DNA of 60,086 nucleotides from Candidatus Pacearchaeota archaeon. GTDB taxonomy: Archaea > Nanobdellota > Nanobdellia > Pacearchaeales > GW2011-AR1. Numbering within the stretch: the first letter of the stretch is position 1; every line of letters starts with the position of its first letter. Location: the NCBI GenBank assembly GCA_018303755.1, contig JAGVXO010000008.1, forward strand, positions 1 through 60,086. Reading direction: 5' to 3'. The notes beneath the pieces are model-generated. The model was not told the DNA's origin. It did no database searches and was given only the letters and a program-made list of their open reading frames with translations. Shown here piece after piece: positions 9,535-56,530 of the stretch. A program made the translations under genes and the position numbers.

Positions 9535-9685
9535 CATTCGCCTATTCTTCTTTTGCAAATCTGATATCTGCTTTGCACCTTGATTTCTTGGGGGTTTAAT
9601 TTAATATTAAATGGAAAATAATATTGATAAAAAGAAAAAATGAAAAGATACAAAAATGTGAAAAAAGAATTGGATGTTAGCAGAT
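9535..9685 (+). repeat. Dispersed intergenic element (degenerate copy)
   Basis: GCAAATCTGATATC followed by AAATGTGAAAAAAGAATTGGATGTTAGCA. Confidence 0.55.
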
Positions 9686-9690
9686 AAAAA

Positions 9691-10371
9691 TCATCCGCCG
9701 AAAAATACAATCAGCCCTGCTTCTATAAATGCTGCAATTAAAAGCAAAGGCAGTACTACAAGAAAGAACACAAGAAGAGCATCTCTGATATAAACCTTCA
9801 GTCTTTTCCATCTATCTTTATGAAAAACGAACAGCCCTGCTTTTAATCCTATACCAAAAGAAATTACAACAGCACTAATCTCAAAAATCCCATGAGGCGC
9901 AAGACGCCATAAGCTTAAAATTCCTGTTTCTGAAACAACAAGCCCTGACACAAGCCCTATAATAAATCCATTTGAAGCAAGAAGCAAAACAAAAAATATG
10001 CCTATTGGCGGAAAAATAATAAGAAAAAATCCAAGCAAAATTGATAAAAATGCAATTGAGGCATTATTAATAAAAATAAATCTTGCCATTCCAAAAAATC
10101 CAAGCCCCTGCGTTTCCTCAAGAATTCCCTGAATAAACTCTTTCAGCCATGCTAAAACAATGTCTAATAAAAAGTCAGGCGCAAGAAAAACAAATAAAAA
10201 TCCTGCAAGAAAAAAAGCAAGCAATATGGCTGTAACAGAAAATATAGAATGTCTTGAATATTTGATAAATCCAAATGCCATTCTATATCCAACAGCAATA
10301 GCACGATTATCTCTCTGCTTCAAATTAACTCTGTTAATATGCTTCTTTTTCTTATCTAATTTTTTTTTCAT
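9691..10371 (-). CDS. SpoIIM-family membrane protein
   Basis: IFINNAS, LASNGFIIG, LAPHGIFEISA, AAFIEA motifs. Confidence 0.85.
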   Translation of the reverse strand: MKKKLDKKKKHINRVNLKQRDNRAIAVGYRMAFGFIKYSRHSIFSVTAILLAFFLAGFLFVFLAPDFLLDIVLAWLKEFIQGILEETQGLGFFGMARFIFINNASIAFLSILLGFFLIIFPPIGIFFVLLLASNGFIIGLVSGLVVSETGILSLWRLAPHGIFEISAVVISFGIGLKAGLFVFHKDRWKRLKVYIRDALLVFFLVVLPLLLIAAFIEAGLIVFFGG

Positions 10372-11081
10372 TGTATTGATTCATTCAAAAGCTGTATTTT
10401 TCTTGAGTATTTATTTTTAAGATATGCCCCATAAGCAATTCCTGCAATAAGCCCCCCAAAATGTGCAGTATTTCCTATTGGAAGTCCTGTTCCTGCAGAA
10501 ACAATCCAAGTTAAAAACAATACAAGAGGAATCATTATATATGCCGGAAGTGAAAAAAATGGAAGAAAGATTATTGAAAATCTTAATTTTGGGGTGATTA
10601 TAACAAAAAGCCCTGCAATTGCAAAAATTGCTCCACTTGCTCCTACTCCAGGCATATCAGGACTGCCGAAAATCATACCCCCTATTGATGTTGAGCCAAA
10701 AAACACAGGAAAAATAACTGCAACAATGCCTGCAGCAATTCCTGAAATTATGTAAAACCAAAAAAATCTTCTGCTTCCGATAATCTTTTCGCAGAAACTT
10801 CCCAGGGAAAATAAAACAAACATATTTATCATAAGATGAAAAATATTCGCATGCATAAACATGCTGGTTATGATTGTCCATAAATATTTCCCATGGATAA
10901 TAAAAGAGGGATTGAGGGCAATATAATCAATAAAATTAGGATTAGTCCATATAATCACGGAGCCGATTATAAACAAGACAATATTTGCAAAAATAAGCTG
11001 TATAGTCACGCTCAATCTATTAAAAAAATTGCCTGTATTTAGTACATTCCTTGCAGTATATCTTCTTAATCTATTTCTCAT
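10368..11081 (-). CDS. Rhomboid intramembrane serine protease
   Basis: ITSMFMHANIFHLMINM, catalytic GASG, TAHFGG. Confidence 0.9.
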   Translation of the reverse strand: MRNRLRRYTARNVLNTGNFFNRLSVTIQLIFANIVLFIIGSVIIWTNPNFIDYIALNPSFIIHGKYLWTIITSMFMHANIFHLMINMFVLFSLGSFCEKIIGSRRFFWFYIISGIAAGIVAVIFPVFFGSTSIGGMIFGSPDMPGVGASGAIFAIAGLFVIITPKLRFSIIFLPFFSLPAYIMIPLVLFLTWIVSAGTGLPIGNTAHFGGLIAGIAYGAYLKNKYSRKIQLLNESIQ

Positions 11082-11085
11082 CTCT

Positions 11086-11811
11086 CTATTTTTTTGATTT
11101 AGTTTTATTTTTAGGAGTTTTTTTCTTTAATTTAGCTGCTTGTATCTTTTTTGAGTTTTTACCTGCATGGGCTTTTTTTAGAGAAGCCATTCGTGAGCGT
11201 TTTCTTTTTTCATTAGAAAGCTTTCTTCTTGCAACTTTATCTTTTTCCTGCTTCTTCTTTTCACGCTCGTGCTTCTTTAATTTTTTGCCTTCAATAAAAG
11301 TTATTTCATTTTCAACTTCTTCCAATTTTTTTGCGGCTTTTTTTATAGCAGAAGAAATTTCTGCTACTGCTTTTTTATTGTCATTCATCTCGTAAATCTC
11401 CCCGCATTCTGGGCAGGCAAAATCATTAAGCAGGGCATTTTCTTCTGTAATTTCTGTATTGCAGATTTTGCAAATATAAAATCTTTTTATCTCTCTGCTC
11501 TTCAACTGATGTTCAAGCTGTTCAATTTCGTTGCGCAGCCCTTTCTGAAGAAGCAAAAGTGCTCTGTCAATATTAAATGTCCAAAAATAAGTATACCATC
11601 CTTTTTTCTTATCTTTTTTTCTTGTAGAAGAAACAAGCCCATCATCAGAAAGTTTATAGAGTATATTTCTTGCTTGGTTTATTGTCAATCCGAGTTTTTT
11701 TGCAATAATGAACTCATTTACATTCCTCTTGTCAAATAAAATATCAACTATTGGTGGGGCATTCTTTCCGCCAATTGAAGAACTTATTTCTTTAAGAAGC
11801 TCAATATCCAT
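11086..11811 (-). CDS. tfe: Transcription factor E alpha, with Lys-rich C-terminal tail
   Basis: wHTH (INQARNILYKL..GWYTYFW) plus Zn ribbon CKIC..CPEC. Confidence 0.85.
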   Translation of the reverse strand: MDIELLKEISSSIGGKNAPPIVDILFDKRNVNEFIIAKKLGLTINQARNILYKLSDDGLVSSTRKKDKKKGWYTYFWTFNIDRALLLLQKGLRNEIEQLEHQLKSREIKRFYICKICNTEITEENALLNDFACPECGEIYEMNDNKKAVAEISSAIKKAAKKLEEVENEITFIEGKKLKKHEREKKKQEKDKVARRKLSNEKRKRSRMASLKKAHAGKNSKKIQAAKLKKKTPKNKTKSKK

Positions 11812-11911
11812 TAAGTGTAATCAAAGCAAATCATTAATATAGTTTTCTATGTTCTGTAACTACTATTAAATTTATCAAAACATATAAATAGAATATTTCA
11901 AAACTAACCCT

Positions 11912-12580: not shown

Positions 12581-12587
12581 TTTCTGA

Positions 12588-12947: not shown

Positions 12948-13023
12948 GTCTATAAACAAAGATTAATCCAAACAGAATTGAACCCATAATAGATTTTATA
13001 AACACCAATTTATTATAAAAACT

Positions 13024-13911: not shown

Positions 13912-13984
13912 AAAGCAAAATAAACCTGTGCATATTACGAATATTTTTAAACATCTTGTTCTTATGTTTTTAATGGTTAAAATA

Positions 13985-16592: not shown

Positions 16593-16633
16593 TTTAAACT
16601 AAAGGCATGCACCTATATAAATTTAATTATTGA

Positions 16634-16806
16634 CTCGCTCGCCTGCGGGCTCGCTTTAATTTAGTTCGCTTCGCTCACCCAGAGAATTATCCAAGCAAAT
16701 CTGACGCCATTTATACTTTGGTTCTCCATTATTTGATTTAACATTAAATAAAACAAAAACACCAATGAGCTCACCTAAAATAAGGTAAAAGAATGGAATG
16801 TTAAAA
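16634..16806 (+). repeat. Dispersed intergenic element
   Basis: CTCGC/GTTCGCTTCGC hairpins, GCAAATCTGACGCCATT, CACCAATG..CTAAAATAAGG..ATGGAATGTTA. Confidence 0.75.
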
Positions 16807-16842
16807 GAAAAATAATAAAAAGAAAGAAAAGCAATAAAGAAT

Positions 16843-17509: not shown

Positions 17510-19600
17510 TCACTCAACAAAAATAGCAGGTCTGTTTGGCTTTGCTTTTGAACTTTTATTTTCAGGGTCGTACTTGCTTCGGTCATTTACTGCAAAAACT
17601 TTAACTTCTTTTCCAATTCTTCTGCTCAAAACTTCAGAATTATAATTTTCAAATTCATTTGGAATTGCATAAAGATAAACGTTCTCTGCATCTTTTCCTT
17701 GTTTCTCTTTTATTATTTTTAATATATTCAAAATATCTTCAATTGTCTTTTCAACTGCCTCTTCTGATTTTTCCAGATTCAAATCAATCTTCTTCTCATC
17801 TGCAATAGGCCATTTTTCCAAGCTGATAAAACTTTTATTTCCGATTCTGTTCCATATCTCCTCTGCAATATGCGGTGCAAAAACAGAAAGCATTTTCAGA
17901 AAACTTTCAATATCTTTTTTAGAAACTTCGCTTTCCTGTTCAATTGCTTCAAAAATCTTTCTTAGCTTAATAATTGCAAGATTATATCTAAACTCAACTA
18001 TCTCTTCGCTAAGCTCTTTAATCGTTTTATTAATCCTGCTCTCAATTTTTCTGCTCGATTTCCCAGTTTTCATTTTTGGGAGAGTTTCAAAAACTTTCTT
18101 GATAAATCTCAAACTTCCTTCTATGCCCTTGTCGCTCCATTGTGTGTCTTTTTCGGGCAAAGCAACACTCATTAAAAATATTCTCGCCGTGTCAATTCCG
18201 TATTTTTTCGAAACTTCTTCAGGCAGTACAACATTTCCTCTTGATTTGCTCATTACAGCTCCATCTTCTCCATGAAGCATTCCTTGGTTGAATAATTTTA
18301 AAAATGGCTCATCAATTTTTAAATATCCTAAGTCTCTTAATGCCTTTGTAAAAAATCTCGCATAAATCAAGTGCATGCATGCGTGTTCAGCGCCTCCAAT
18401 ATACTGGTCAATAGGCATCCAATAATTTACTTTTGATTTATCAAAGGGAATTTTAGAATTTTTATTATCTGCATATCTTAAATAATACCACGAGCTGTCA
18501 AAAAAAGTGTCCATTGTGTCTGTCTCTCTGCGTGCATCGCCTTTGCATTTTGGACATTTAATTTTAATCCATTTTTCATCTGTTGCAAGAGGATTGCCTT
18601 TTCCAAATTTTACATTTTCAGGAAGTTTTACTGGAAGCTCTTTTTCAGGAACAGGAATAATTCCGCATTTAGCACAATAAACTATAGGTATCGGAGTTCC
18701 CCAGTATCTCTGCCTCGAAATAAGCCAGTCCCTTAATTTATACTGAATTGTTTTTTTGCCCAATTTTTTAAATTCAAGTGCCTTTGTAATATGCTCTTTT
18801 GCCTCGTCGCTGTCAAGTTCGCTGAATGCGCCTGAGTTGATAAGTTTTCCAAAACTCTCATAACATTCTTGTCCTCTAAATCTTTTCCAGATGATTAAAA
18901 TATCATTATCCCTAACTAAAAACTTATCCACCTTATTTTCATCAATCCAAACAATATTATGTATTTTACTTTCTTCTTTGCTTATTTCATTTCTTTTATC
19001 ACTATTTAATTCAAAATACAATGTCTCAAAATGAGCATCCCTATTTTGTTTCTTTGTTTCATGGTAAAATTTAGAATGAACAACCCCTTCAATTTTTTTG
19101 ATAAATTTAATATCAGTATATCCTGTTTCTTCTTCTATTTCTCTTTTCGCTGCACTTAATAAATCCTCTCCGGATTCAATGCCTCCAATTACAAAACCTC
19201 TCCAGTCATTTTTTTTCCATTGCAAAAGCAAATATTTATTATTCTTGGGATTTTTTATAATAGCCACAACTGCCTTTATTTCTACTTTAGGTTCATTTTT
19301 TCTATAAGCATCAGAACCTGAAGTGTTTACATAAACTGGTTGGATAACTTCTTTAATGGGAATATTATACTTCTTTGCAAACTCAAAGTCCCTCGCGTCG
19401 TGCGCAGGAACAGCCATCACCATTCCGCTTCCGTAATCAGCAACAACAAAATTTCCTGCATAAACAGGCACTTTTTCATTTGTCATAGGATTAACTGCAT
19501 AACTTCCTGTAAAAACTCCCTCTTTTTCAAGAGCTTCAAAATCTTTCTCACTTGTTGATTTTATTTTTTTCAAAAAATCTTCTCCCAAAACTTTTTCCAA
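17510..19600 (-). CDS. leuS: Leucyl-tRNA synthetase, C-terminal part (bacterial type) with inserted Nudix domain
   Basis: [51 protein letters not shown]; Nudix box [22 protein letters not shown]. Confidence 0.9.
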
Positions 19601-21737: not shown

Positions 21738-22298
21738 TTATATTCTAGTCCATGCTACTTCATAATATGTTATGTCTCCCTCTGAATCCACAACAGCAAT
21801 AAGCAGATTTTTCTTTGTTGAATGTGCAACTCGGTTCTTTGCAGAAAAATCCTGCCATGTTAGCTCAGAAGATTCAGAAACAGGGTATAATATCCATTTT
21901 GCATGCTCTTTGCCAGGACGATGTCCCCTATCATAAACTCGGAAATCAGCTCCAAACTTAAGGGCAGTTTTAAGAATATATCCCTTTTCCCTCATATCCT
22001 TATAAACCGGATATTTAACATAAATCTTTTTATCAACTTTCTTGCATCTCTCACTAAGCTCATTAAATCCCATCTTGCGCGAAGAATAATACACTTCCAT
22101 TTTCCCTTTTTCAACAAGATAAAGCGCTTCTGAAAAAGAATAAACAATTCTCTTTCCAGAAAACTCGCCAAAAAGGCTCTGGCTGTACAAATCCCTCGCA
22201 TATTTAGAACTGCTGGAAATATTCTCTCCGCTAAAAACAGCGCGGACAGTCTTTTTTTCTTTTCCAATCTGCTTGCTTTTAACTTTCTTTACCGGCAT
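21738..22298 (-). CDS. endA: tRNA splicing endonuclease
   Basis: EALYL, VYKDMREKGYILKTALKFGADFRVY, catalytic Y/H/K positions, RVAHSTKK. Confidence 0.9.
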   Translation of the reverse strand: MPVKKVKSKQIGKEKKTVRAVFSGENISSSSKYARDLYSQSLFGEFSGKRIVYSFSEALYLVEKGKMEVYYSSRKMGFNELSERCKKVDKKIYVKYPVYKDMREKGYILKTALKFGADFRVYDRGHRPGKEHAKWILYPVSESSELTWQDFSAKNRVAHSTKKNLLIAVVDSEGDITYYEVAWTRI

Positions 22299-22349
22299 AA
22301 AAGTAATAACACTTTTGAATATTTAAAAGTTGGTATAATGCAAGAATCA

Positions 22350-22510
22350 AGACAATTCTTTAATACCCCATAAGTTTGCATTATTTTACATCTTTTCAAG
22401 AGGATTTCTTTTCAATTAAACATCCTGAAGGACCAATGGATAAATGACGTCAGATTTGCAGAATGTCATCAGATTTGAAAAATAAAAAGTGCGCGAAGCG
22501 CACCAAAATT
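22350..22510 (-). repeat. Dispersed intergenic element
   Basis: Reverse strand reads GGTGCGCTTCGCGCAC..GCAAATCTGACGTCATTTAT..AAATAATGCAAACTTATGGGTATTA. Confidence 0.7.
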
Positions 22511-22552
22511 ATAAACAAAAAGATTTAAAAACAACTGCGCTAATCTAAACAA

Positions 22553-27206: not shown

Positions 27207-27254
27207 ACACTCATTAATAATAAAATCAAAAAAACACTTTATTTAAACATATTG

Positions 27255-27305
27255 ATAGGCACGCCTGCGGGCGCACTTATTTATTCTGCAAATCTGCTAT
27301 CTATT
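27255..27305 (+). repeat. Dispersed intergenic element, hairpin half only
   Basis: ACGCCTGCGGGCGCACTTATTTATTCTGCAAATCTGCTATC. Confidence 0.6.
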
Positions 27306-27361
27306 TGTAAAATTGGTTTATTATATTTTTAGGATATATCCAATAAATTTAAACTAAATAA

Positions 27362-27946
27362 TCAACCCTTTTTCTTTTTCACAATGCACATTTTGCATGG
27401 CTTATATTTTGCTTTTTTATAAAATGCTTCGCTGTTTGAACTTACTTTGTATTTTTTCTTTATAAGCTTTCCAAAACGGCATAAATGCTTGTGATAAACT
27501 TTTGTCTGTGAAGAGCCAAGATAATCATATTTCGGGATGTTTAATTTATCGCGCAGCTTTTCAATATAAACTGGGACCTCTTTTTCAATTTCTTGGATAA
27601 CTGGCTTTTCAACAATTCTTTCAACAGGGCGGTCAACAAATCTAACAACTGGCTTTTCAATTTCTTTTATAACTTCTTTGAAAATCGGCTTTTCAATAGT
27701 TCTCGTCTCTCTCGTGTTAACCTCTCTCAAAATCTCAGGCTCAAGAAGAAAAAACAAAAGCACAGTATAAAACAAAATAAGAAAAAAAGCAAGGATAATA
27801 GAATACTCTGAATTAAGTTTCAGTATGAATACTGCAATAAACTCTATCAAAGCAATGAAAAACCATGAAAAAATTGCAAATAAAACATTATTCTCATTCC
27901 ATATTCTATGTTCATTTACATTTTGAGAACTATTATAATTATCCAT
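27362..27946 (-). CDS. Membrane protein with C-terminal Ada-like metal-binding motif
   Basis: Two TM segments; YLGSSQTKVYHKHLC...YKPCKMC. Confidence 0.6.
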   Translation of the reverse strand: MDNYNSSQNVNEHRIWNENNVLFAIFSWFFIALIEFIAVFILKLNSEYSIILAFFLILFYTVLLFFLLEPEILREVNTRETRTIEKPIFKEVIKEIEKPVVRFVDRPVERIVEKPVIQEIEKEVPVYIEKLRDKLNIPKYDYLGSSQTKVYHKHLCRFGKLIKKKYKVSSNSEAFYKKAKYKPCKMCIVKKKKG

Positions 27947-28658: not shown

Positions 28659-28773
28659 TGCCCCCGACAGGATTTGAACCTGCGACCCCTAGCTTTCTTC
28701 GGCTGCGGGATTATAAAAACCCGCTAGCGATTTTTAGAAGGCTAGTGCTCTATCCAGGCTGAGCTACAGGAGC
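28659..28773 (-). tRNA. tRNA-Arg(TCT) with a 40-nt intron at 37/38 (28695-28734)
   Basis: Acceptor GCTCCTG/CGGGGGC, anticodon stem CTAGC/GCTAG, BHB central helix CTTC:GAAG. Confidence 0.9.
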
Positions 28774-30104: not shown

Positions 30105-30512
30105 AAAATAATCAGGAAAAAGGAGTTTAAATATATTAAGAAAAAGGGATTTACTATTTTTACAAAGAATACATGAGAATAATCTGGCTCTGCCAAGATT
30201 ATTCTTTTTTAATCTGTTAATCTAAAAGGATTTTGATATATTTAACATGAGGTAATCATAATCCTCCTGTCTTCATCTAATTTATTTGGGCATTATTAAA
30301 AAATAATTTCATAGCCGATTAATCCTGCTGAAAGCGAGCAATTGCACGAGCCAAAGTAGTTTATACAATGAGTGCAATTACGAGTAGGATTAATTATCAC
30401 TTTTCACTTACTTTTAAAAAAAAGTTCTGAATATCAAATCAAAAAACAATAAAGCTTCAGCTACAACTCAAAGACACCAGAAATAGTGTCCCTGAAAATT
30501 AAAAAAACAGGA

Positions 30513-32402: not shown

Positions 32403-32420
32403 AAAATTAGATTTATAATC

Positions 32421-32585
32421 GCTCGCTTTATTCTGGTTCGCGCTTCGCGCATATTTTATTATTCTTCAAATCCTACTCCATTTGTTCATGGGTTCTTCAA
32501 ATGCTTTAATTTAATATCGAATAAAATAAAAACTCCAATGTGCTCACCTAAAATGCGGGAAAGGAGTGGGATGCTAGAAGAATAA
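32421..32585 (+). repeat. Dispersed intergenic element
   Basis: GGTTCGCGCTTCGCGC..CAAATCC..CCAATGTGCTCACCTAAAATGCGGGAAAGGAGTGGGATGCTAGAA. Confidence 0.75.
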
Positions 32586-32641
32586 ATTTTCAAAAATCTC
32601 AATATGTTGGCGATATTATGCTCTTTGCAAAATAAATCCTG

Positions 32642-34193: not shown

Positions 34194-34458
34194 TTTTATG
34201 TAAAATTCCGCCATTATAAAAAATAACTTACTTTTCTAAAGCAAGGAAATATAATTAAATCAATAAACAATCCAAAAATTACAATTTCTAATAAGATTCA
34301 TATTAAGATGTTTAGAATATTAAAAATATTAGAAAAAGAATAATCTTGGCGAAGCCAGATTATTCAGTTATTACACCCTCCTTTTTGTGTAACTACTATA
34401 TAAAAGATACAAACCGAAAACTTTAAATACCACTTCTTAATAGTGTCAGTATTAAAAA

Positions 34459-35175: not shown

Positions 35176-35310
35176 TTAAATTCGATTTGGCTTATCATTG
35201 TTTTTTAAACACACCATAACTTTTCCTTATTTTAGGTTTGTTCATTAGTATTGTTTATTTTATGTTTAATTCAAATTTTATTCAATATCCAGTTAAAATA
35301 TATTAAAATC

Positions 35311-35580
35311 CAATGAGCTAAATAGCATAGGATTTGCAAAATAAACAAGTGCGCGAAGCGAACCAATAATTAATTTTTCTAACATCCCATTCCTTTTCAC
35401 ATTTAACATCTTTTTATTGGAGTTTCATTATTTTAACATCATCAATTAAAAGTACATAAAAAACCAATGTGCTCATGGGTTTGGTATTTGAAAAATAAAC
35501 AGGCAGGCGAAGCAAATTTATAAACTGGCGAGGCGAAGCCGAGCCAATATATGACGAGCCAGCAGGCGAGCCAAATATCT
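35311..35580 (-). repeat. Dispersed intergenic element, tandem hairpin-tail-hairpin arrangement
   Basis: Reverse strand reads GGCTCGCCTGCTGGCTCG..GCTCGGCTTCGCCTCGCC..CCAATAAAAAGATGTTAAATGTGAAAAGGAATGGGATGTTAG..GGTTCGCTTCGCGCAC..GCAAATCC. Confidence 0.75.
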
Positions 35581-47994: not shown

Positions 47995-48059
47995 AATAAA
48001 TAAATCACGTATATAAATGTTATTGGGTTAAGAAAAAAGAGAGTCAGAAGTAAAATAAA

Positions 48060-48131
48060 TGGCCCTGCCAGGAATCGAACCTGGGTTGCTTCCACGTCAA
48101 AGAGGCGTCTTAACCACTGGACCACAAGGCC
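48060..48131 (-). tRNA. tRNA-Val(GAC)
   Basis: Acceptor GGCCTTG/CAGGGCC, loop TTGACGT, T-arm CCAGG-TTCGATT-CCTGG; one C:A mismatch in the anticodon stem. Confidence 0.75.
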
Positions 48132-48175
48132 TTGAAAAAGCCAGTGCATAATCATATAAAAAATTATCCATAAGG

Positions 48176-48360
48176 TAAGTGCACACCCTGCGGAGCGCAC
48201 GTTTATTTAGTAAATCCCTAATCCGCAAGTATATTTGTTTCTTGAGTGCTCTTAATTAATGAGATTAAAATCAAAAAAAAGGAATGTAAAAAGGAATGTA
48301 AAAATGAAGATTCAATGAAAAGATGTTAAATTAGGAAAAGTTATAAGATGCTAAAAAAAT
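48176..48360 (+). repeat. Dispersed intergenic element (degenerate copy)
   Basis: GCACACCCTGCGGAGCGCAC..TAAATCC..CAATGAAAAGATGTTAAATTAGGAAAAGTTATAAGATGCTA. Confidence 0.55.
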
Positions 48361-48437
48361 CTCAAAATCCCAAACTAAAAAGCTTTAAATACCCTCTTCA
48401 AGATAAATCAATATAAATAAAAAGCACCATAATAAAA

Positions 48438-48749
48438 ATGAAAAAACCAAAAACAACAAACAGATTTTGCCCTTATTGCAAAAAGAAAACACTTCATAAA
48501 ATAAAGTTATTATCAACAGGAACTAAAAGAGGAACTCTTAAACGCGGTTCTCTTATAAGAGCAAAATGGCGCCACGCAATGCCTGGTATGGGAAACAAAG
48601 GAAGATACGGAAGCAAACCTCCTATAAACAAATGGAAAAGAAAAACAAAAAGCACAAAAAAACACGTGTTTATTTATACTTGCCAAACCTGCACTAAATC
48701 TCATCAATCTAAAAAAGGAATAAGAGTGTCAAAAGTAATGTTTGAATAA
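48438..48749 (+). CDS. rpl44e: 50S ribosomal protein L44e
   Basis: RFCPYCKKKTLH..KGRYGSKP..KSTKK..YTCQTC. Confidence 0.9.
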   Translation: MKKPKTTNRFCPYCKKKTLHKIKLLSTGTKRGTLKRGSLIRAKWRHAMPGMGNKGRYGSKPPINKWKRKTKSTKKHVFIYTCQTCTKSHQSKKGIRVSKVMFE

Positions 48750-48750
48750 A

Positions 48751-49344
48751 ATGGCTGGAGAAAAAAAGAAATTTTTTGATGTTGAAATACCTTTTATAGA
48801 AAAAAAAGTAGAACTTTTTGCATTTGAGCAGTCAGCGCTTGACAAAAAAACAATTAAATTAGACCTGACAAATCTTCTGAAAGGAAGGGCGCTGGAAATT
48901 AGCCTTTATGTAGAATTAAAAAATAATAAACTAATTGCAATTCCAAAAAAAGCAGAACTTATAAATTCCTATGTGAGAAGATTATCAAGAGGAGGAACAG
49001 ACTATGCAGAAGATTCTTTTCTTGCAGAATGCAAAGATAACCGGATAAGAGTAAAACCGCTTATAATTGCAAGAAATAGAGTTTCAAATAGAGTACTAAA
49101 AGGATTAAGAGAAAAAGCAAAAGAAGAGATAATTCATTATGCGAAGTCAAAAACATTCGAAGAAATTCTGCTGGGAGTAATAAATAACAAGCTTCAAAAG
49201 GAGCTTATGCCAAAACTCAAAAAAATATATCCTGTAGCAGTATATGAAATAAAATTCATAGGAATAGAAAATCCGAAAGGATATGAAAAATACGAGCAAG
49301 AAAAAGAAATTGAGCAATCTGCTAAAAAAGAAAAGGAAGAATAA
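48751..49344 (+). CDS. rps3ae: 30S ribosomal protein S3Ae (divergent)
   Basis: KTIKLDLTNLL, YVRRLSRGGTDYAEDSF, LKKIYPVAVYEI. Confidence 0.75.
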   Translation: MAGEKKKFFDVEIPFIEKKVELFAFEQSALDKKTIKLDLTNLLKGRALEISLYVELKNNKLIAIPKKAELINSYVRRLSRGGTDYAEDSFLAECKDNRIRVKPLIIARNRVSNRVLKGLREKAKEEIIHYAKSKTFEEILLGVINNKLQKELMPKLKKIYPVAVYEIKFIGIENPKGYEKYEQEKEIEQSAKKEKEE

Positions 49345-49835
49345 TGATACAAAAAACACTTGTTCTTATAAAGCCAGACGGAATACAAAGAGGGCTTATT
49401 GGAGAGATAATAAAAAGATTTGAGCAAAAAGGGCTTAAGATAGTCGGAATGAAAATGCTTAAATCTGAGAAAAAATTAGCTGAAGAGCATTATTCAGAAG
49501 AAATTGCGAAAAAACATGGCGAACCTGTAAGAAAAGCGCTTCTTGATTTTATAATAAGCGCACCTATAATTGCAATGTGTATTGAAGGAAGCAGTGCAAT
49601 ATCAAGTGTAAGAAAAATTGTCGGAAATACCTATCCTGGAGATGCAGATATCGGAACAATAAGAGGAGATTATGCGCATGCATCAAAAGCATATGCAAAG
49701 TCAAATGCAAAAGCGCTTCCAAATTTAGTTCACGCTTCTGAAAATGAGCAAGATGCAAAGCGCGAAATCGCACTTTGGTTTGCATCTAATGAAATTAATA
49801 GTTATAAGCTAAGCCACGAGGATTTTATTTTCTAG
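49344..49835 (+). CDS. ndk: Nucleoside diphosphate kinase
   Basis: TLVLIKPDG, GTIRGD, NLVHASE. Confidence 0.95.
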   Translation: MIQKTLVLIKPDGIQRGLIGEIIKRFEQKGLKIVGMKMLKSEKKLAEEHYSEEIAKKHGEPVRKALLDFIISAPIIAMCIEGSSAISSVRKIVGNTYPGDADIGTIRGDYAHASKAYAKSNAKALPNLVHASENEQDAKREIALWFASNEINSYKLSHEDFIF

Positions 49836-50112
49836 AAGATAAATGATTCTTAAAATCCTGTCCTAAATGAGACAAACTATTTCCAATATTTTTTGTTCTT
49901 TCTTCAAGAATTCCTAATGTCCTGCTCTGATTTATTAAAAAACCCGCAATAACAAACATTCCTGCAACAATAATTCCCATGTCTGCAATAAGTATATTTT
50001 CAGTTTCCCATGTTCCACCAACAATCACTTTTGCTATTTGATATATCACAATAATGAATAAAACTAGATAAATTATTCTCAAAAATGCCCTGACAATCTT
50101 ATTTAAAACCAT
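49825..50112 (-). CDS. Small membrane protein
   Basis: Two TM segments. Confidence 0.5.
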   Translation of the reverse strand: MVLNKIVRAFLRIIYLVLFIIVIYQIAKVIVGGTWETENILIADMGIIVAGMFVIAGFLINQSRTLGILEERTKNIGNSLSHLGQDFKNHLSSRK

Positions 50113-50293
50113 CCTAAATTCTTAGCAAGCCATAAAAACAAAAGAATTGCAAGTATCAAAAAATCCCATTTTAAAACATGCATAAACCAATCTGCCTTTA
50201 TTGATTGTGCCATATAAATATGTTAAATACTTAGCCCTTTAAAATTCTTGTTATTCGGCTAATATCAATAAATAAATGAAACTTTTACTCTTC

Positions 50294-50587
50294 TCAAAAA
50301 TACCTAAAATTTCCCCCCTCTATTTTAATTGCTTTGCCATTAATTATCGCCCCTGCAATTTTTTTCCTTGCAGATAAAACTAATCTATGAAATGTTGGTT
50401 GTGAAATATTCATTTTTTTAGCGCAATTTTCCTGCTCTAATCCTTCTAAATCTTTTAATCTCACTGCTTCAAATTCATCAATAGCCAATATAACCTCCTG
50501 CAATTTTCTCAATGGAATCCCCCGAGGCTTAAAATAAGTAATATCTGGATTAAATCTAACTCTCCTGCATAATCTTGGGCGTACCAT
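50294..50587 (-). CDS. DUF134 HTH protein
   Basis: MVRPRLCRRV, YFKPRGIP, EFEAVRLKD, MNISQPTFHR. Confidence 0.9.
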   Translation of the reverse strand: MVRPRLCRRVRFNPDITYFKPRGIPLRKLQEVILAIDEFEAVRLKDLEGLEQENCAKKMNISQPTFHRLVLSARKKIAGAIINGKAIKIEGGNFRYF

Positions 50588-50595
50588 TTTTAAAA

Positions 50596-50829
50596 TCAAT
50601 CGTGCTCTTCGAATTTTTTATCCTGTTCAGAATCGTTGTTTCTTAGCCATTTTAAAAGCATAGCAACATGCTCTTTTTCTTCATCTCTGTTATGCTCAAG
50701 AATTTTTTTCAGCTCTTCATCTTCAGCTTCTTCAATTCTTGTTTCATACCAATTAATGGCTTCAAGTTCTTCAATAACACTCTGCCTTGTTTTCTTCAAG
50801 TCGCTATTTTCAACATCTTTTGAATACAT
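50596..50829 (-). CDS. Encapsulated-ferritin-like (EncFtn/Flp) protein
   Basis: SVIEELEAINWYETR, HNRDEEKEHVAMLLKWLR. Confidence 0.85.
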   Translation of the reverse strand: MYSKDVENSDLKKTRQSVIEELEAINWYETRIEEAEDEELKKILEHNRDEEKEHVAMLLKWLRNNDSEQDKKFEEHD

Positions 50830-50902
50830 TTTAACCTCCGTTAAGATAAATACGTCCCGATATATAAAACTTGCTGAAATAAAAAAGAAAAGCAGGAAAA
50901 GA

Positions 50903-51138
50903 TTACTTAATTTCTTTTAATCTCTTCTCTATGTCCTGCTTTTCCAATTCAATTTCTTTAAGCTCAGCTTCAAGGACTTTTTTTCTTCATCTTTTGTCAA
51001 AGTCATTGGAACTCTGAATCCAAATCCTCTGCCACAGCCTCGGCTAAATCCTCTCCGCATTCCGCCTCCGCAAGGTCCTAATCCTCTTCCTGTCATAGCA
51101 CCCATTCCTTGAGGCCCTGTTTTGTCCATATTTGGCAT
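50903..51138 (-). CDS. DUF5320-like protein, reading frame shifted at an A7 tract (50978-50984)
   Basis: MPNMDKTGPQGMGAMTGRGLGPC; the -1 frame continues VLEAELKEIELEKQDIEKRLKEIK* to 50903. Confidence 0.75.
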
Positions 51139-51275
51139 TTTATTTTCCTCCAGTTTGTGTTTATTTCATTATGAATATATATTCATAACACTATTTAAAC
51201 CTTTCGGCGAATAAAATGAATAAACAAATATCCAATTCTAAAACTTTAAAAACCACAGCATTCTATTTTCTTTAT

Positions 51276-51349
51276 GCCCCCATAGCTCAGCTGGTTAGAG
51301 CGGCAGTTTTGTAAACTGTAGGTCGTCGGTTCAAACCCGGCTGGGGGCT
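51276..51349 (+). tRNA. tRNA-Thr(TGT)
   Basis: Acceptor GCCCCCA/TGGGGGC, loop TTTGTAA, U73. Confidence 0.92.
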
Positions 51350-51399
51350 TGGAATAATTTTAAAAATAATATTTCCCATTAAAAAAAGAGAATATTTTT

Positions 51400-51620
51400 G
51401 GCTCGCCTGCTGCTCGCGATTGCACTCGTTGTATAAAATTCATTAGTTCGTGCAATCGCTCGGGCTCGCTTATAATGGCGCGCCTTCGGCGCACTTGTTC
51501 TATTCTGCAAATCCGCTATCCCTTTGCACATTAATTATTCAAATGATTTAATTTATTTTAAAATCAAAAACACCAACGAACCAACTTAAAATGTGGGAAA
51601 GTTATGGGATATTTAAAAAT
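51400..51620 (+). repeat. Dispersed intergenic element
   Basis: GGCTCGCCTGCTGCTCG, GCGCCTTCGGCGCAC, GCAAATCCGCTATC, CACCAACG..CTTAAAATGTGGGAAAGTTATGGGAT. Confidence 0.75.
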
Positions 51621-51636
51621 ACAGATTTGAAAAAAC

Positions 51637-52197
51637 CTAATCAATAATAACCTCTGCCTTTTTTTCTGAAATAAAAATGTCTGCAATCTGTTTTGGCACA
51701 CTCGAAATCTCATCTTTTTTAAATGGGCCTACTGGCATACCATCAAGCCCTATAACCTCTTCTATATCTTCTAAGAAAAGAAGCACTTTTAATTCTTCAA
51801 CATCATCTAACTGAACATTGTTTGACATCTGGCTTGCAAGTTTTTTTTCTGCTCTTTCAACACCCTGCATTATTTCATCAAAAAGCTCTCTTTCAAAATC
51901 AAGCATATTATCAAAATCTCTTTTGCTCGCCCCTGTCTCGCTCGCAACAAACGCCAGCCCGAGAAGCTTTTTCTTTCTCAAAAGCATAAGCTCTTTGAAA
52001 ATAGCAACAGCATTCTCCAGCTGTTTCTTGGTTTTGGAAATTTCCTCTGAAAACATCTCGCCTTTTTGCCCTGCAATTTTTCTCTTATCAGAAAGATATT
52101 CAAAAACCTCTGAGATAAATTTTTTTTGCAGTGGCTGCAGTTGTTCGCTGTATCTCTCTTTCCTGAGGAATTCATACAAGTCATTATAAGTAATCAT
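51637..52197 (-). CDS. GINS-family replication protein (A then B domain, Gins51-like)
   Basis: ITYNDLYEFLRKER..LQPL; C-terminal GLDGMPVGPFKKDEISSVP..ADIFI. Confidence 0.65.
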   Translation of the reverse strand: MITYNDLYEFLRKERYSEQLQPLQKKFISEVFEYLSDKRKIAGQKGEMFSEEISKTKKQLENAVAIFKELMLLRKKKLLGLAFVASETGASKRDFDNMLDFERELFDEIMQGVERAEKKLASQMSNNVQLDDVEELKVLLFLEDIEEVIGLDGMPVGPFKKDEISSVPKQIADIFISEKKAEVIID

Positions 52198-52289
52198 AAA
52201 GTTTTTAGCATAAGGCAATTTATAACGATTATGGTTGTAAAAAACAACCTAAACAACAGATTTATAAGTTAATACTCCATTTAAAAAAT

Positions 52290-53435
52290 ATGTTCGGATT
52301 TTTAAAAGAAAAGCTCAAAAAGTTCATAGAATCAGCAAGGCATCCTAAAGGAAAAGAAGAAGAGTCTGCAAAGGCAGAGGTTCAGGAAAAAAACAAGGAG
52401 AAATTAGAGTATATTACAGAGGAAGCTGGAGAAAAAGCAGATAAAAAACCAAGGAAAAAACAAAAGCCAGAAGTAAAAGAAATAAAAATTGAAAAGCCTG
52501 TTGAAGAAGCGATTGAAGAAAAGCTCGCTGAAGAGACAAAAAAGCAAAGTGAAGAAAAAGTCGGTTTTTTTGCAAAAATAAAATCAAGATTCTCAACTAC
52601 ACGTTTTGACCAGGAAACATTTAATGAATTATTTGAAAAGCTTGAAGCTTTGCTTCTTGAAAACAATGTCTCTTTAGAAGTCGTGGATAAAATAAGGGCA
52701 GACATGGAAAAGCGCCTTGTAAACATAGAAATTGAAAAATCAAAAATAGAACAGGAGATAAAAAATTCCCTAAAAGAAACTCTTCTTGAAATTCTCATTG
52801 AGCCATTTGATATAACTGAAAAAATAAAAGAAAATGGGGGCACATTCGTAATGCTTTTTTTTGGAATAAACGGAAGCGGAAAAACAACTTCAATTGCAAA
52901 AATCGCCTCGCTTCTGCAGGAAAATAAAATAAGCTGTGTAATTGCAGCAGGAGATACTTTCAGAGCAGCATCAATAGAACAGCTGAAAAAGCACGGAGAT
53001 AAATTAGGAATAAAAATAATCCATCAGAATTACGGCTCTGACCCTGCAGCAGTTGCATTTGATGCAATAAAATACGCAGAAGCGCACGGAATAAAGGCAG
53101 TTCTCATAGATACAGCAGGAAGAATGCATACAAAAGACAATCTAATGAAAGAAATGGAAAAAATTATCCGTGTTGCAAAACCAGACATAAAAATATTTGT
53201 AGGAGAATCTATAACAGGAAATGATGCAACAGAACAAGCAAGGCAGTTCAATAGCTCATTCGGAGTTGATGCAATAATCCTGACAAAAGCAGATGTTGAT
53301 GAAAAAGGTGGAACAGCAATTTCTGTCGGATATATAACGGGCAAGCCAATATTGTTTTTAGGAACAGGGCAGGATTATCATTCTCTTGAAAAATTCCATC
53401 CAAATGAAATAATTGCTAATCTTGGGCTTGAATAG
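52290..53435 (+). CDS. ftsY: SRP receptor FtsY
   Basis: GINGSGKTT, DTFRAAS, DTAGR, TKAD; acidic/basic N-terminal region. Confidence 0.95.
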   Translation: MFGFLKEKLKKFIESARHPKGKEEESAKAEVQEKNKEKLEYITEEAGEKADKKPRKKQKPEVKEIKIEKPVEEAIEEKLAEETKKQSEEKVGFFAKIKSRFSTTRFDQETFNELFEKLEALLLENNVSLEVVDKIRADMEKRLVNIEIEKSKIEQEIKNSLKETLLEILIEPFDITEKIKENGGTFVMLFFGINGSGKTTSIAKIASLLQENKISCVIAAGDTFRAASIEQLKKHGDKLGIKIIHQNYGSDPAAVAFDAIKYAEAHGIKAVLIDTAGRMHTKDNLMKEMEKIIRVAKPDIKIFVGESITGNDATEQARQFNSSFGVDAIILTKADVDEKGGTAISVGYITGKPILFLGTGQDYHSLEKFHPNEIIANLGLE

Positions 53436-54117
53436 TTTCTTTAAATTTCTTATCAATTATTTTATCAAGATTAACTATCTTAAATAATAGAATAAGCAGT
53501 GTCAGCCAGAAAATTCCAAGGAAAAATCCTGCAATAACATCGCTAAACCAGTGCACATTAAGATAAATTCTGCTAAATCCAATAATCAAAAATAATAATA
53601 TACTGCAAACAATAAATAAATACCTTGCAAATTTATTTTTTATCTCGTATTTAAAAGAATAAATAACCAGTGAAAAAAAGATTACTGCCATTGTTGCATG
53701 CCCGCTTGGAAAGCTTGAGCCAGAAAATTCAATTAATACATTCGCAGGTCTTAATCTATAAACAAGAAATTTAATCAGCAGTCCGCTTAAAAAACCAGCC
53801 AAAATGCTGAAAAAAAGAAGAACTGCAGAATAAAATTTTTTCATATAAACAAAAACAAACAGCAGAACTATCAGCAAAAAAGCAAAAACAAATGGGCTGA
53901 TGATATTGGTGAAAAAAATCATCACCCAAGTGATAATCTCTCCATGAAACGCACTAACTGATTGGTTTATTAAAAAATCAAGAAAAAGGATTTTGTTCTC
54001 ACTAACAACCATCCATAAAATCAGAGAAAATACCAAAATAGATAAAATGCAGAGTATTAAGGCAAACAAATGGTGCTTTGCAAATCTTTTTGTTTTTCGC
54101 TCAGAAATTATAGCCAT
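53416..54117 (-). CDS. PAP2-family membrane phosphatase
   Basis: KFLVYRLRP, SFPSGH, SRIYLNVHWFSDV. Confidence 0.9.
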   Translation of the reverse strand: MAIISERKTKRFAKHHLFALILCILSILVFSLILWMVVSENKILFLDFLINQSVSAFHGEIITWVMIFFTNIISPFVFAFLLIVLLFVFVYMKKFYSAVLLFFSILAGFLSGLLIKFLVYRLRPANVLIEFSGSSFPSGHATMAVIFFSLVIYSFKYEIKNKFARYLFIVCSILLFLIIGFSRIYLNVHWFSDVIAGFFLGIFWLTLLILLFKIVNLDKIIDKKFKETIQAQD

Positions 54118-54203
54118 ATCTAAACATAATTAATTATCTATTTAAAATATTCCAAGCATCCCTAAACCACAACTTTATTAACCTTATACTTCCTAATTTT
54201 GAT

Positions 54204-55586
54204 ATGCTTGAAGCAATTGGAAATGCGCTGAAAAAAGGAATTGACAGAATAGCATCAGCTGTATTTGTTGATAAAACTCTGGTAGATTCTACTGTTAAAG
54301 AGCTTCAAAGAGCGCTGATTATGGCAGACGTAAATATTGCGCTTGTAAAAGAAATAAGTGAAAAGATAAAGCAGGAAGGGGAAAAATATGTGAAAAATGT
54401 TGAGAAAAAAGAACACATAATAAAAATTCTCAATGATGAAATAATAAGAATAATTGGTGAAGAGAAAAAAGAGCTTGAGCTTGGAAAAAAAGACGCAATT
54501 CTTTTCGTTGGATTATATGGGACAGGAAAAACGACTTCAATTGCAAAAATAGCCTCATGGTACAAGAAAAGAGGGAAAAGTGTTGCAATCTTGGGACTTG
54601 ATGTGCATCGCCCTGCTGCATCAGAACAGTTGGAGCAGTTGGGAGAAAAAATACAGGTGCCTGTTTTTATAGATAAAACAGAAAAAAAGCCGTTGAAAAT
54701 TTATGAAAAATACAAAAAAGAACTTGACAAATACAATCTCGTTCTGATTGATTCTGCAGGAAGAGATGCTTTAGAGAAATCGCTGATTAAAGAAATTAAA
54801 GAAATTAAGGAAGCTGTGAAACCAACACATACAATTTTTGTAATCGCAGCAGATATAGGGCAGGCTGCAAAACAGCAGGCAGTAATTCTGAAAGAAGCAT
54901 GTGGTATTGACGGAGTGATTATAACAAGAATGGATTCTTCTGCAAAAGCAGGAGGCGCCTTAACTGCCTGCAATGAAGTAAATGCGCCTGTTTATTTCAT
55001 AGGAACAGGAGAAAAAATAAACGATATTGAGCAGTTTAATCCAAAAGCATTTGTTTCGCGCCTTTTAGGAATGGGTGATTTGGAAACTTTAATTGAAAAA
55101 GTAAAATCAGCAACAGATGAAAAAACTCAGGAAAAGCTGAAAAAGAATCTTGAAGAGGGCAAATTTACCCTTGCAGATTTAGCTGAACAATTAGAATCAA
55201 TGCAATCAGTCGGCCCATTAGGCAAAATTGCAGAAATGATTCCAGGATTAGGAAAAGCAAAAATTCCTGATAATGCGCTTGAAACACAGGAAAAAAAATT
55301 AAAGGGATGGAAGCACGCAATAAAAAGTATGACAAAAGAAGAAATTGAAAATCCTGAATTGCTCGAAAAGCAAACCTCAAGAATTTCGCGAATTGCAAAG
55401 GGCTCTGGAACAAGTACTGGAGATATTAAACAATTAATAAAACAATACAAAATGATAAAAGAGCTTGCCTCAAGCGCAGGCGCAATGGACATGGAAAATA
55501 TGCATGACCCGAATAAAATGATGTCAAACAAACAGCTGATGAAACTCGCAAAGAAATTCGGAAAAAAGAAGACGATTAGGTTTTGA
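54204..55586 (+). CDS. srp54: Signal recognition particle protein SRP54
   Basis: GLYGTGKTT, DVHRPAA, DSAGR, TRMD, M-domain SMT.EE..RIAKGSG. Confidence 0.95.
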   Translation: MLEAIGNALKKGIDRIASAVFVDKTLVDSTVKELQRALIMADVNIALVKEISEKIKQEGEKYVKNVEKKEHIIKILNDEIIRIIGEEKKELELGKKDAILFVGLYGTGKTTSIAKIASWYKKRGKSVAILGLDVHRPAASEQLEQLGEKIQVPVFIDKTEKKPLKIYEKYKKELDKYNLVLIDSAGRDALEKSLIKEIKEIKEAVKPTHTIFVIAADIGQAAKQQAVILKEACGIDGVIITRMDSSAKAGGALTACNEVNAPVYFIGTGEKINDIEQFNPKAFVSRLLGMGDLETLIEKVKSATDEKTQEKLKKNLEEGKFTLADLAEQLESMQSVGPLGKIAEMIPGLGKAKIPDNALETQEKKLKGWKHAIKSMTKEEIENPELLEKQTSRISRIAKGSGTSTGDIKQLIKQYKMIKELASSAGAMDMENMHDPNKMMSNKQLMKLAKKFGKKKTIRF

Positions 55587-55672
55587 ATAGTAAACTAAAA
55601 AAAGAAAGAAGAAGAAAATAAAAAGATTAAGAATAAAAAACAAAAAAGAAAGAGAAGTAAAATAAAAATCAA

Positions 55673-56164
55673 TTAATAATCAGAGAAATTATAATGTCCG
55701 CAAGCCGGTGTAGATACAATCATTTGGGCTTGGGCATAACTAAGTGCAGTAGATTCATCTGCCAACAACATTTTCACTTCAACGCCATTTATTAATTTAG
55801 TTTGTGCTTCTGAAACTTCCGAGCTGCCTAAATTTCCATATTTATTTATAACCTTTATTGTAGCAGCACTATCTGTAGCAGTTTTGAGTTCAATCAAATA
55901 AGGACTTCCAACAAGATAGACTGTCTCCTTAGGATGATGCCCTTCTTTATTTACCGCTAAATCTAAAAATCTGCCATCGCATTTAAGATCATTTAGGGAA
56001 GTTAGCTTTTGATCCATCTCTAATTGTGTATAAACTCTATATGTCCCATTTATATCTTTGTTTACTCTTATCACATCTCCAGTAATGCTCGTAGTTACAA
56101 GCGAAGCAACCACTGCAACAATAAGAACAACAGCAATCACTCCAACCCATTCTTTGCTTTTCAT
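55673..56164 (-). CDS. N-terminally anchored surface protein
   Basis: N-terminal TM; start at ATG 56164 after GGAGGTGA (the track's MKGGDK is the translated SD). Confidence 0.65.
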   Translation of the reverse strand: MKSKEWVGVIAVVLIVAVVASLVTTSITGDVIRVNKDINGTYRVYTQLEMDQKLTSLNDLKCDGRFLDLAVNKEGHHPKETVYLVGSPYLIELKTATDSAATIKVINKYGNLGSSEVSEAQTKLINGVEVKMLLADESTALSYAQAQMIVSTPACGHYNFSDY

Positions 56165-56275
56165 TTTATCACCTCCTTTCAATCACTATTTTGTATTTTA
56201 GTTCAATCTTTCGTTTTCGTGTTGAAAACTTATTGAAAGATTAACAATCCAAAGGGGGGGGCGTTATAAATATTT
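56162..56275 (-). promoter_or_regulatory. Promoter/leader copy 1: TATA (TTTATAA), C8 tract, GGAGGTGA SD
   Basis: Shares two sequence blocks with 60001-60086. Confidence 0.65.
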
Positions 56276-56311
56276 CGGTTACTTTTAGATTATGGGTTTT
56301 TTGGATAATTA

Positions 56312-56530
56312 CGCTCGCTCGGCTTCGCCTCGCTCGCCTTAAATGCAATTAGTGGCGCTTCGCGCCCGTTTTATTTTGCAAATCTGACGCCGATTGATTT
56401 ATTGATTATTTAAATATTTTAATTGATATTAATAAAAAAAGAAGAATGCAAAAAGCACCAATGAACAAACTTAAAATAAGGCAAAATTATGGGTGTTAGC
56501 AAAATAAATTTCAGCAAATCTGCTAATCAT
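56312..56530 (+). repeat. Dispersed intergenic element
   Basis: GCTCGGCTTCGCCTCGC, GGCGCTTCGCGCC, GCAAATCTGACGCC, CACCAATG..CTTAAAATAAGGCAAAATTATGGGTGTTAGC. Confidence 0.75.

Follow-up and report, generated by a model that had tools for sequence, protein, structure and literature searches.

What keeps one short noncoding sequence in so many gene spacers of a reduced archaeal genome? We met this question in a 60,086-nucleotide (nt) stretch of DNA from Candidatus Pacearchaeota archaeon (GenBank assembly GCA_018303755.1, contig JAGVXO010000008.1, positions 1 to 60,086; here, the window). [quoted passage not shown] We find a large and modular family whose old copies are conserved block by block. 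The explanation that we favor, to which we give about an even chance, is an old, apparently inactive, non-autonomous selfish repeat that has been kept as terminator-type transcription punctuation.

The window is contig C16 of a 769-kb assembly of this groundwater DPANN archaeon (36 contigs, 32-33% GC, 82% complete). Searching it by nhmmer, with a model built from its own copies, placed a copy in the annotated orientation at each of the nine loci (E = 5e-15 to 1e-39). There are ten copies in all, the locus at 35311 being a head-to-tail pair (Table 1). Across the assembly, the ten-copy profile returned 224 matches, and 227 after a second iteration, a family about 20 times larger than the window implies. 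These 227 matches lie at 171 loci (119 single, 49 double, 2 triple, and 1 quadruple), span 32.4 kb or 4.2% of the assembly, occupy about one-fifth of gene spacers, and are spaced fairly evenly along the genome, at about one locus per 4.5 kb. The 32421 locus recurs at 99.98-100% identity in six independent metagenome assemblies, so that the family is not an assembly artifact; the 35311 pair is present in five of the six, and one contig (L012) diverges from the window from position 34414 onward. A description of such a repeat family was not found in the literature that we searched, and the view of it as undescribed, dispersed, noncoding, hairpin bearing, and no simple terminator is supported.

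Each unit is 150-200 nt long and consists, in order, of a head, a core, an A-rich spacer of variable length, and a tail. In the alignment of the window copies, one to three short GC-rich stem-loops (for example, GCGCTTCGCGC, GTTCGCTTCGCTCAC, and GGCTCGCCTGCGGGCTCGC) are followed by TTTATT(T/C)T, then (T/G)GCAAATC, about nine variable bases, ATTTRTACATTGGTTC, and TTTAATT, so that the core pattern is GCAAATC..CATTGG..TTTAATT. The tail comprises CCAATGA, one of three discrete 9-mers, and TAAAATAAGGnAAAGTTATGGGATGTTAG. The head starts at the GGC or GCTCGC that follows (A/T)AT, and the tail ends in ..GATGTTAGAAAAAT. The blocks named in the initial annotation are therefore real: the GCTTCGC/CTCGC hairpins, a GCAAATCTGACGCC-like core, and a CCAAT..AAAT..ATGGG.TGTTA tail. 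Its GCGAAGC motif is right for the strand opposite to the one it called plus. The GC block of the head is strongly strand asymmetric, with 108 CTTCG against 7 CGAAG and 94 GCTCGC against 1 GCGAGC on the plus strand, and the reverse strand therefore carries C(GNA)G triloops. These are mostly GAA, with some GCA, GTA, and GGA, on stems that often contain tandem G.A/A.G pairs (e.g., GCGAGGC-GAA-GCCGAGC).

The head stem is under structural constraint. Of 117 distinct hairpins, 94% form the base pair adjoining the closing one (75 GC, 29 CG), compared with 57% over 500 shuffles (maximum, 68%), and stem pairs 3 to 5 are 50-59% Watson-Crick plus 18-27% G.A. In the head, the reverse strand exceeds the forward strand only slightly in stability. 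When closed by C-G, GNA triloops, notably GCGNAGC, are exceptionally stable as DNA (PMC13037366, PMC3201870), and the initial annotation had pointed to such a special DNA hairpin. That idea is weakened by the congener G005, in which four units of like architecture have perfect stem-loops at the matching position with unrelated stems and loops: CAGTTTTGT-TTC-ACAAAACTG, CTTGCC-TATC-GGCAAG, CTAGC-TAT-GCTAG, and GGAATTTTGC-CAA-GCAAAATTCC. In these units, the stem-loop is followed by ATATTTTATTnTCTGGAAA, a spacer, and a tail, AAATTAGGTAAAGATATGGTATGTTTA. Since the G005 homologs have other loops (TAT, TATC, CAA), AT-rich stems, and no GNA loop, that loop is no conserved requirement; the conserved feature is therefore a stem-loop directly before a T-rich tract.

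The repeat does not code for protein, nor is it a gene for a structured RNA. The mean overlap of copies with open reading frames (ORFs) of at least 70 amino acids (aa) is 4%, and only 9 of 176 copies overlap such an ORF by more than 30%. Coding on the reverse strand of the tail is ruled out by this minimal overlap and by stops in most copies, and the similar reverse-strand translations once noted in two copies are incidental. RNAalifold gave no consensus fold on either strand from 136 full copies. Changes in the CATTGG..CCAATG inverted repeat are uncompensated and break the pairing (G-C to G-A 31 times, to A-C 17 times), and we therefore rejected a long-range RNA fold. In the window, the sole Rfam matches at gathering thresholds were tRNAs, and two repeat loci scanned permissively gave nothing close to threshold. 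The proposal of a structured RNA family is thus not supported by fold, compensation, or Rfam. The search for covariation did find some, confined to the 3- to 6-bp head stems, where it is also seen across species (G005); the rest of the element does not covary.

How old is the family, and has it simply decayed? Copies share a mean pairwise identity of 64%. For modules of about 50 nt, nearest-neighbor identity is 0.80-0.82, which by a rough estimate is about the chance expectation under a star phylogeny. Core and tail identities are uncorrelated over pairs (r = -0.003), the same copy is the nearest neighbor for both modules in only 4 of 136 cases, and the variable segments fall into discrete subtypes, those of the core showing almost no linkage to those of the tail. 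Conservation per column, in contrast to what uniform neutral decay would leave in such old copies, ranges from about 30%, near saturation for AT-rich DNA, to 99% (CAAAT, TTTAAT, AAAT, TATGG.ATG), which excludes that model. Ascertainment by the profile cannot produce block conservation on this scale. We infer that individual copies are under purifying selection; gene conversion limited to blocks is a less likely alternative.

The arrays carry a second signal. All 52 multicopy arrays are head to tail, with every member in the same orientation and with no inverted pairs of the kind formed by REP doublets (REPINs). Copies share loci more often than expected, at 30% of loci versus about 12% under a Poisson expectation over about 870 spacers (about 2.4-fold), and array neighbors are no more alike than random pairs (0.65 versus 0.64). 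Head-to-tail arrays of unrelated neighbors therefore point to orientation-specific insertion beside an existing copy rather than to recent local duplication. Among the indirect signs that copying was site specific, this array order is the best.

We then considered where the arrays sit relative to genes. They lie between tandem, convergent, and divergent genes in 52%, 26%, and 22% of cases, against a background of 62%, 19%, and 19% (p = 0.006 by chi-square). Of 163 arrays, 100 turn the tail toward the 3' end of a gene, against 63 (p = 0.005), and of those between tandem genes, 57 run antisense and 27 sense (p = 0.0014). This bias is local, the orientation of the repeat being unrelated to regional strand composition or gene-strand bias (r = -0.08). 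A replichore polarity signal, of the kind seen in FtsK-orienting polar sequences (KOPS) or Chi-like sites or as a lagging-strand bias, was rejected: there is no correlation with regional GC skew, which tracks gene strand. Genes for tRNA are mildly enriched, with a copy no more than 150 nt upstream of 12 of 27 (p = 0.003) and the head facing the tRNA in 10 of these 12. Four window copies adjoin tRNA genes, as had been noted, and genome-wide a copy lies no farther than 150 nt from 15 of the 27 tRNA genes.

Stop codons may adjoin the repeat at either end, with a median distance of 21-30 nt and often one of 0-15 nt. An adjoining start codon is at least about 30 nt away, and the median distance is 76-78 nt. 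Most genes of this genome are leaderless, with a sharp peak of TATA-like hexamers at 27-29 nt upstream of the start codon and a Shine-Dalgarno-like motif in only 22 of 290 upstream regions. The distance kept from start codons matches the room needed for a TFB recognition element (BRE), a TATA box, and the roughly 22 nt that follow in a leaderless gene; the assembly encodes TFB. Genes next to a repeat keep their own TATA box beyond it, and the copies therefore do not supply their neighbors' promoters. At copy 3, for example, the tail is followed by TTTAAATA (the gene's own TATA box), 21 nt, and a leaderless ATG at 22298.

A separate sequence also recurs at repeat heads. A promoter/leader cassette stands before several genes (window positions 56153-56275 and 59992-60086; also contigs C9, C31, and C34), with TATA, a run of 7-9 G/C, AAGATTAACA, a strong Shine-Dalgarno sequence GGAGGTGAT, and ATG in this order. 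It abuts the repeat head at at least five loci.

For archaeal RNA polymerase, the established signal for intrinsic termination is oligo-T. Runs of T5 or longer number 1.61 per copy on the reverse strand and 0.69 on the forward strand. Where a gene reads into an element tail first, the first T5 run lies a median of 19.5 nt past the stop codon, within 60 nt in 76% of cases, and there are 1.88 runs per 150 nt. For genes without an element, the corresponding values are 113 nt, 33%, and 0.96 runs per 150 nt, and for genes that meet the head first, the median is 175 nt, with 27% within 60 nt. T5 runs are closest to the stop codon in tail-first genes, and thus the favored orientation supplies terminator tracts. 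The head offers just a stem-loop plus T4-5. In a simple scan of positions 40100-60086, the two best terminator-like sites were the proximal hairpins of copy 9 (plus strand) and copy 10. The orientation bias of the T tracts supports a punctuation role; it is in line with one and is no proof of it.

Relatives bear on when the composite element arose. A BLAST search with the consensus returned nothing convincing in 30 relatives, and the full profile gave 0 matches in 282 kb of relatives' loci, an amount for which our genome would give about 80. With a sequence-only tail model (E ≤ 0.01), the motif of about 35 nt in the tail is multicopy in 4-5 of 20 congeners: G001 has 27 copies, G007 has 24, G014 has 18, and G005 has 7 (10 at E ≤ 0.05). 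The other 16 have few or no tail matches, and the motif is absent from G015, the nearest by ribosomal protein S8e (79% identity). In G001 and G007, the motif stands in a different conserved context, CAGTnACTTTCnCATT-TAAATnAGGCAAAnnTATGGCATGATTTCAGAAnAGTTTTGAAAATACTnCAATAAT, with mixed orientation to genes. Among 185,579 species genomes, the exact 16-base tail pattern is multicopy only in Pacearchaeota of this genus, and viral contigs gave only 5 single tail-pattern matches, which we take as chance. From its matches across congeners, the tail is therefore an old, genus-level motif. The G005-type core pattern occurs at background level across the genus, so that the G005 relatives are low copy. 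The composite element is at least as old as the split from G005 and has expanded only in this lineage. So patchy a distribution is better suited to a selfish element than to a signal that the host needs.

Taken together, these observations suggest three steps for a selfish repeat kept as punctuation, whose way of life would be like that of bacterial REP, BOX, and SPRITE elements and of archaeal palindrome-associated transposable elements. Spread would have occurred by orientation- and site-specific insertion beside gene ends and existing copies, always head to tail. Filtering, which the placement shows, left survivors only where coding regions and the leaderless core promoters of about 35 nt stay intact. 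Retention would then reflect block-wise purifying selection on surviving copies that act as transcription punctuation. A transcript entering tail first would meet several oligo-T tracts within about 20 nt of the upstream stop codon, and one entering head first would meet a stem-loop and then a T-rich tract.

Several results weigh against this explanation. Divergent spacers are not depleted (36 arrays, 22% versus 19% of background), so termination is not the driver of copy location, and the orientation bias is only about 60:40. Compared with shuffled GC-rich sequence, head blocks show no excess stability (z from -2.1 to +1.5 with standard nearest-neighbor DNA energies); only the long-stem copy 9 has a negative z, and six other folds lie at +0.4 to +1.5. 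The termini share no terminal inverted repeats. There is no target-site duplication either, the longest shared flank string of 63 single copies averaging 4.21 nt versus 4.32 ± 0.11 nt in shuffled pairings, with repeat boundaries that are somewhat fuzzy by flank comparison. Near-identical copies are absent except for one pair at 90% identity or more. Neither PF01797 (Y1/HUH) nor PF07282 (TnpB) was found in the 82%-complete assembly, in searches that matched 6 of 14 control genomes for PF01797 and positive controls for PF07282; the earlier remark that no mobilizer lies in the window thus extends to the whole assembly. The suggestion to look for empty-site alleles yielded none among the available relatives, because no relative in the collections is closer than 79% S8e amino acid identity. 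The congeners lie at 66-79%, with a downstream neighbor that is not syntenic, and a metagenome scan gave nothing above 74% apart from population contigs at 99.98-100% identity. Finally, oligo-T termination neither requires nor explains the strong sequence conservation of blocks such as GCAAATC and TATGGGATGTTAG. The mobile element resembling a REP or MITE that had been proposed thus lacks terminal inverted repeats, target-site duplications, inverted REPIN-type pairs, and young copies, and what stands is mobility as an inferred origin.

In at least 136 very old copies, boxes that total about 60 nt have kept 90-99% conservation although the intervening segments are saturated, and these boxes include the tail motif of about 35 nt that deep congeners share; the repeat could instead be read by a protein. 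This would be a lineage-specific punctuation system in which a dedicated factor ends or insulates transcription between packed leaderless genes. In a variant, the head stem-loops would be single-stranded DNA (ssDNA) signals for a mobilizing or priming enzyme other than HUH. We regard this as unlikely, though a real contender. The variant, if true, would define a new archaeal class of hairpin-guided element.

The lack of terminal repeats and target duplications, which is counted above against mobility, is part of the definition of the palindrome-associated transposable elements (PATEs) of haloarchaea (PMC3119063). One may ask whether the family is the remnant of a hairpin-guided ssDNA transposon, of either the REP/RAYT (REP-associated tyrosine transposase) or the IS200/IS605-PATE kind, in which a HUH (Y1) enzyme would read the head mini-hairpins on one DNA strand and insert copies beside a target that is recreated by the element. 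The strictly head-to-tail arrays would suit such a mechanism, as would the strongly asymmetric head, whose reverse-strand C(GNA)G triloops with tandem G.A pairs match an extra-stable DNA mini-hairpin motif (PMC13037366, PMC3201870). We nevertheless consider it improbable: Y1/HUH and TnpB are missing from an assembly searched with working positive controls, hairpins stand at a single end, inverted REPIN-type pairs and young copies are absent, orientation is unrelated to regional strand composition, and the G005 stem-loops have no GNA loops.

Two spots have same-orientation head plus core and tail on either side of a small ORF, at C6:44959-45586 (105 aa, forward) and C35:16934-17641 (125 aa, reverse). 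We rejected them as autonomous copies: the ORFs have no Pfam match and are not transposase-like. The only insertion sequence (IS) seen is of the rve type (C3:1-1075 and C17:47537-48552, and inserted at window position 34414 in contig L012). Its first bases, TGTAGTATCC.., resemble neither end of the repeat. In L012 (6379-8366), an rve-family (DDE) IS followed by an N6/N4 methyltransferase gene replaces the window sequence past 34414, an insertion or rearrangement polymorphism.

Could the element instead be a small noncoding RNA gene family or a portable promoter? Its tail would then act as an outward BRE/TATA promoter, laid out as a purine-rich block, TAAAATAAGG, about 20 nt, and TTAG followed by A, that yields RNAs antisense to the neighbor's 3' end or, in arrays, short RNAs with a GC hairpin whose end is the next TTTATT. 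The conservation of the tail motif across deep congeners, multicopy only in Pacearchaeota among the 185,579 species genomes, fits this proposal, and so does sequence. The tail's GAAAAGATGTAAAATA and AACTTAAAATA resemble BRE/TATA (compare the genome's AAGATTTAAATA classes, and for the TATA-like part the TTTAAATA and AAGATTTA classes), and the genome's spacing of 27-29 nt places the predicted start at the TTAG-A junction, the outer edge of the element. Yet no gene starts at the predicted site, and downstream genes keep their own TATA box between tail and ATG. With a weight matrix trained on this genome's promoters, the best score per element is 3.8 on the forward strand and 4.8 on the reverse strand, versus 4.3 for random windows and 8.2 for held-out promoters, although the matrix is weak and this evidence modest. 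An RNA gene has against it the missing consensus fold, the lack of covariation beyond the head, and the lack of an Rfam match. We find both forms of the proposal doubtful.

Least probable of all is that nothing was copied and that protein-binding boxes recur at fixed spacing, as a sequence-specific boundary, insulator, or nucleoid-organizing site under selection at each locus, for although boxes at 90-99% alternate with saturated fixed-length segments at 30-50%, the phylogeny is star-like without a subfamily signal joining modules, and loci are fairly evenly spaced (about one per 4.5 kb), some 60 conserved positions in fixed order and shared subtypes in the "variable" segments argue for common descent, partial copies and head-only or tail-only fragments resemble decay, and a patchy presence in the genus, with none in the nearest relative, speaks against a signal essential to the host.

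The genomes of DPANN archaea are known to be reduced and dense in genes, and here 4% of the DNA is one noncoding repeat. If block conservation means function, the repeat provides about 170 candidate transcription-boundary signals, which are testable, in a lineage with unstudied termination and promoter architecture. If the repeat is purely selfish, a strongly reduced archaeal genome would still have been colonized, and then frozen, by a non-autonomous element whose mobilizer has vanished.

Table 1. Copies of the repeat in the window, with nhmmer E values and local features
Copy	Position	Strand	E value	Features
1 (9535 in the initial annotation)	9482..9696	+	8e-28	Degenerate head hairpin CAGCTCATTTCATTCGCC, core, tail; convergent genes either side
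2	16631..16815	+	4.5e-36	Head hairpins GCTCGCCTGCGGGCTCGC and GTTCGCTTCGCTCAC, then core, tail; head DNA folded on both strands
3	22346..22511	-	4e-25	One GCGCTTCGCGC hairpin; core segment CAAATCTGA duplicated internally (22464-22506)
4 (partial)	27251..27364	+	5e-15	Model positions 26-132; head and core, no tail; 52 nt from tRNA-Cys 5' end
5	32418..32588	+	6e-39	Between ribosomal protein S8e and a convergent gene
6	35195..35372	-	2e-33	Tail-side member of head-to-tail pair
7	35370..35571	-	1e-32	Head-side member of pair; head faces tRNA-Leu 5' end at 58 nt
8	48175..48370	+	1e-26	Head 55 nt from tRNA-Val 5' end
9	51400..51626	+	9e-36 (for 51440-51626)	Proximal hairpin GCGCCTTCGGCGC at 51480-51492; extra distal module from ~51400 with a 9-10 bp stem CGATTGCAC..GTGCAATCG and a loop of ~25 nt (fold)
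10 (best scoring)	56310..56510	+	1e-39	Distal hairpin block 56312-56338; proximal hairpin GGCGCTTCGCGCC 56354-56366; T tract 56369-56377; GCAAATC 56378-56384; tail 56454-56506 (tail-model match)

Directly 3' of the tail of copy 10, a core fragment stands alone at 56528-56562 (CAGCAAATCTGCTAATCATTCGTCCATTAT), without a hairpin or tail of its own; by its sequence it looks like a decayed third-party copy. Outside the repeat family, two 33-nt arms at 30177-30209 and 34333-34365 show 94% mutual complementarity. Each arm also forms a hairpin by itself, GAATAATCTTGGC-GAA-GCCAGATTATTC, the loop being C(GAA)G, and they look like stand-alone terminator-type stem-loops.

Further observations concern tRNA genes and their synthetases. 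Rfam gave two long tRNA matches (115 and 132 nt) that ARAGORN did not call, one of them with an intron. At 28659-28773 on the minus strand, the window has an intron-bearing tRNA gene of which a metagenome contig (L009:661-760), identical downstream, has an intronless version. Upstream of the tRNA, this contig carries a class II aminoacyl-tRNA synthetase gene only 74% identical to that of the window, and its junction at the tRNA gene is recombinant or chimeric. At 17510-19600 (minus strand) lies a leucyl-tRNA synthetase fragment with an inserted NUDIX domain (residues 110-224), apparently separated from the N-terminal part.

None of the defined repeat families accommodates the element, and a non-autonomous mobile origin is plausible. 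The BOX (boxA-boxB(n)-boxC) and SPRITE elements of Streptococcus pneumoniae are modular and noncoding, have no known mobilizer, and occur in about 100 or more intergenic copies with terminator-like stem-loops; their hosts are bacterial, and the number of BOX modules varies within one element. Our repeat has no sequence relation to either, a fixed module order, and whole units in head-to-tail arrays. The PATEs of Haloquadratum walsbyi and other haloarchaea (PMC3119063) are closer in several respects, being archaeal, too short for a transposase, without inverted terminal repeats or target duplications, numerous, very heterogeneous in sequence, and equipped with near-terminal palindromes. They differ in that their palindromes lie near both termini and their ends match co-resident IS200/IS605 elements (TnpA/TnpB) (PMC3119063), whereas our repeat has hairpins in the head only and no TnpA/TnpB in the assembly. 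Our copies are also far more diverged, and no strain-specific insertion was found among them. REPs, together with bacterial interspersed mosaic elements (BIMEs) and REPINs, are likewise short GC-rich extragenic palindromes, intergenic and in high copy number, with proposed roles that include termination and mRNA stabilization (PMC3116915, PMC3733652). REPs measure 20-40 bp, have a GTAG or CGTC head, and are commonly found in inverted pairs with a RAYT gene alongside (PMC3116915, PMC3733652). The present repeat is a 150- to 200-nt composite in an archaeal host, arrayed only head to tail, with no GTAG/CGTC tag and no RAYT. MITEs, such as the Correia elements of Neisseria and SM1-4 of Sulfolobus, are also non-autonomous and intergenic and can carry promoter or terminator signals, but are defined by terminal inverted repeats and, usually, target-site duplications (PMC3184786, PMC10969869), of which our tests found neither here. 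Finally, most heads in this genome carry C(GAA)G or C(GCA)G triloops on the reverse strand, often with tandem G.A pairs, as do the d(GCGAAGC)/GNA mini-hairpins of single-strand initiation sites in the phage G4 origin and RSF1010 ssiA (PMC13037366). Those are single functional sites in phage and plasmid origins, whereas the sequence described here is a dispersed repeat family.

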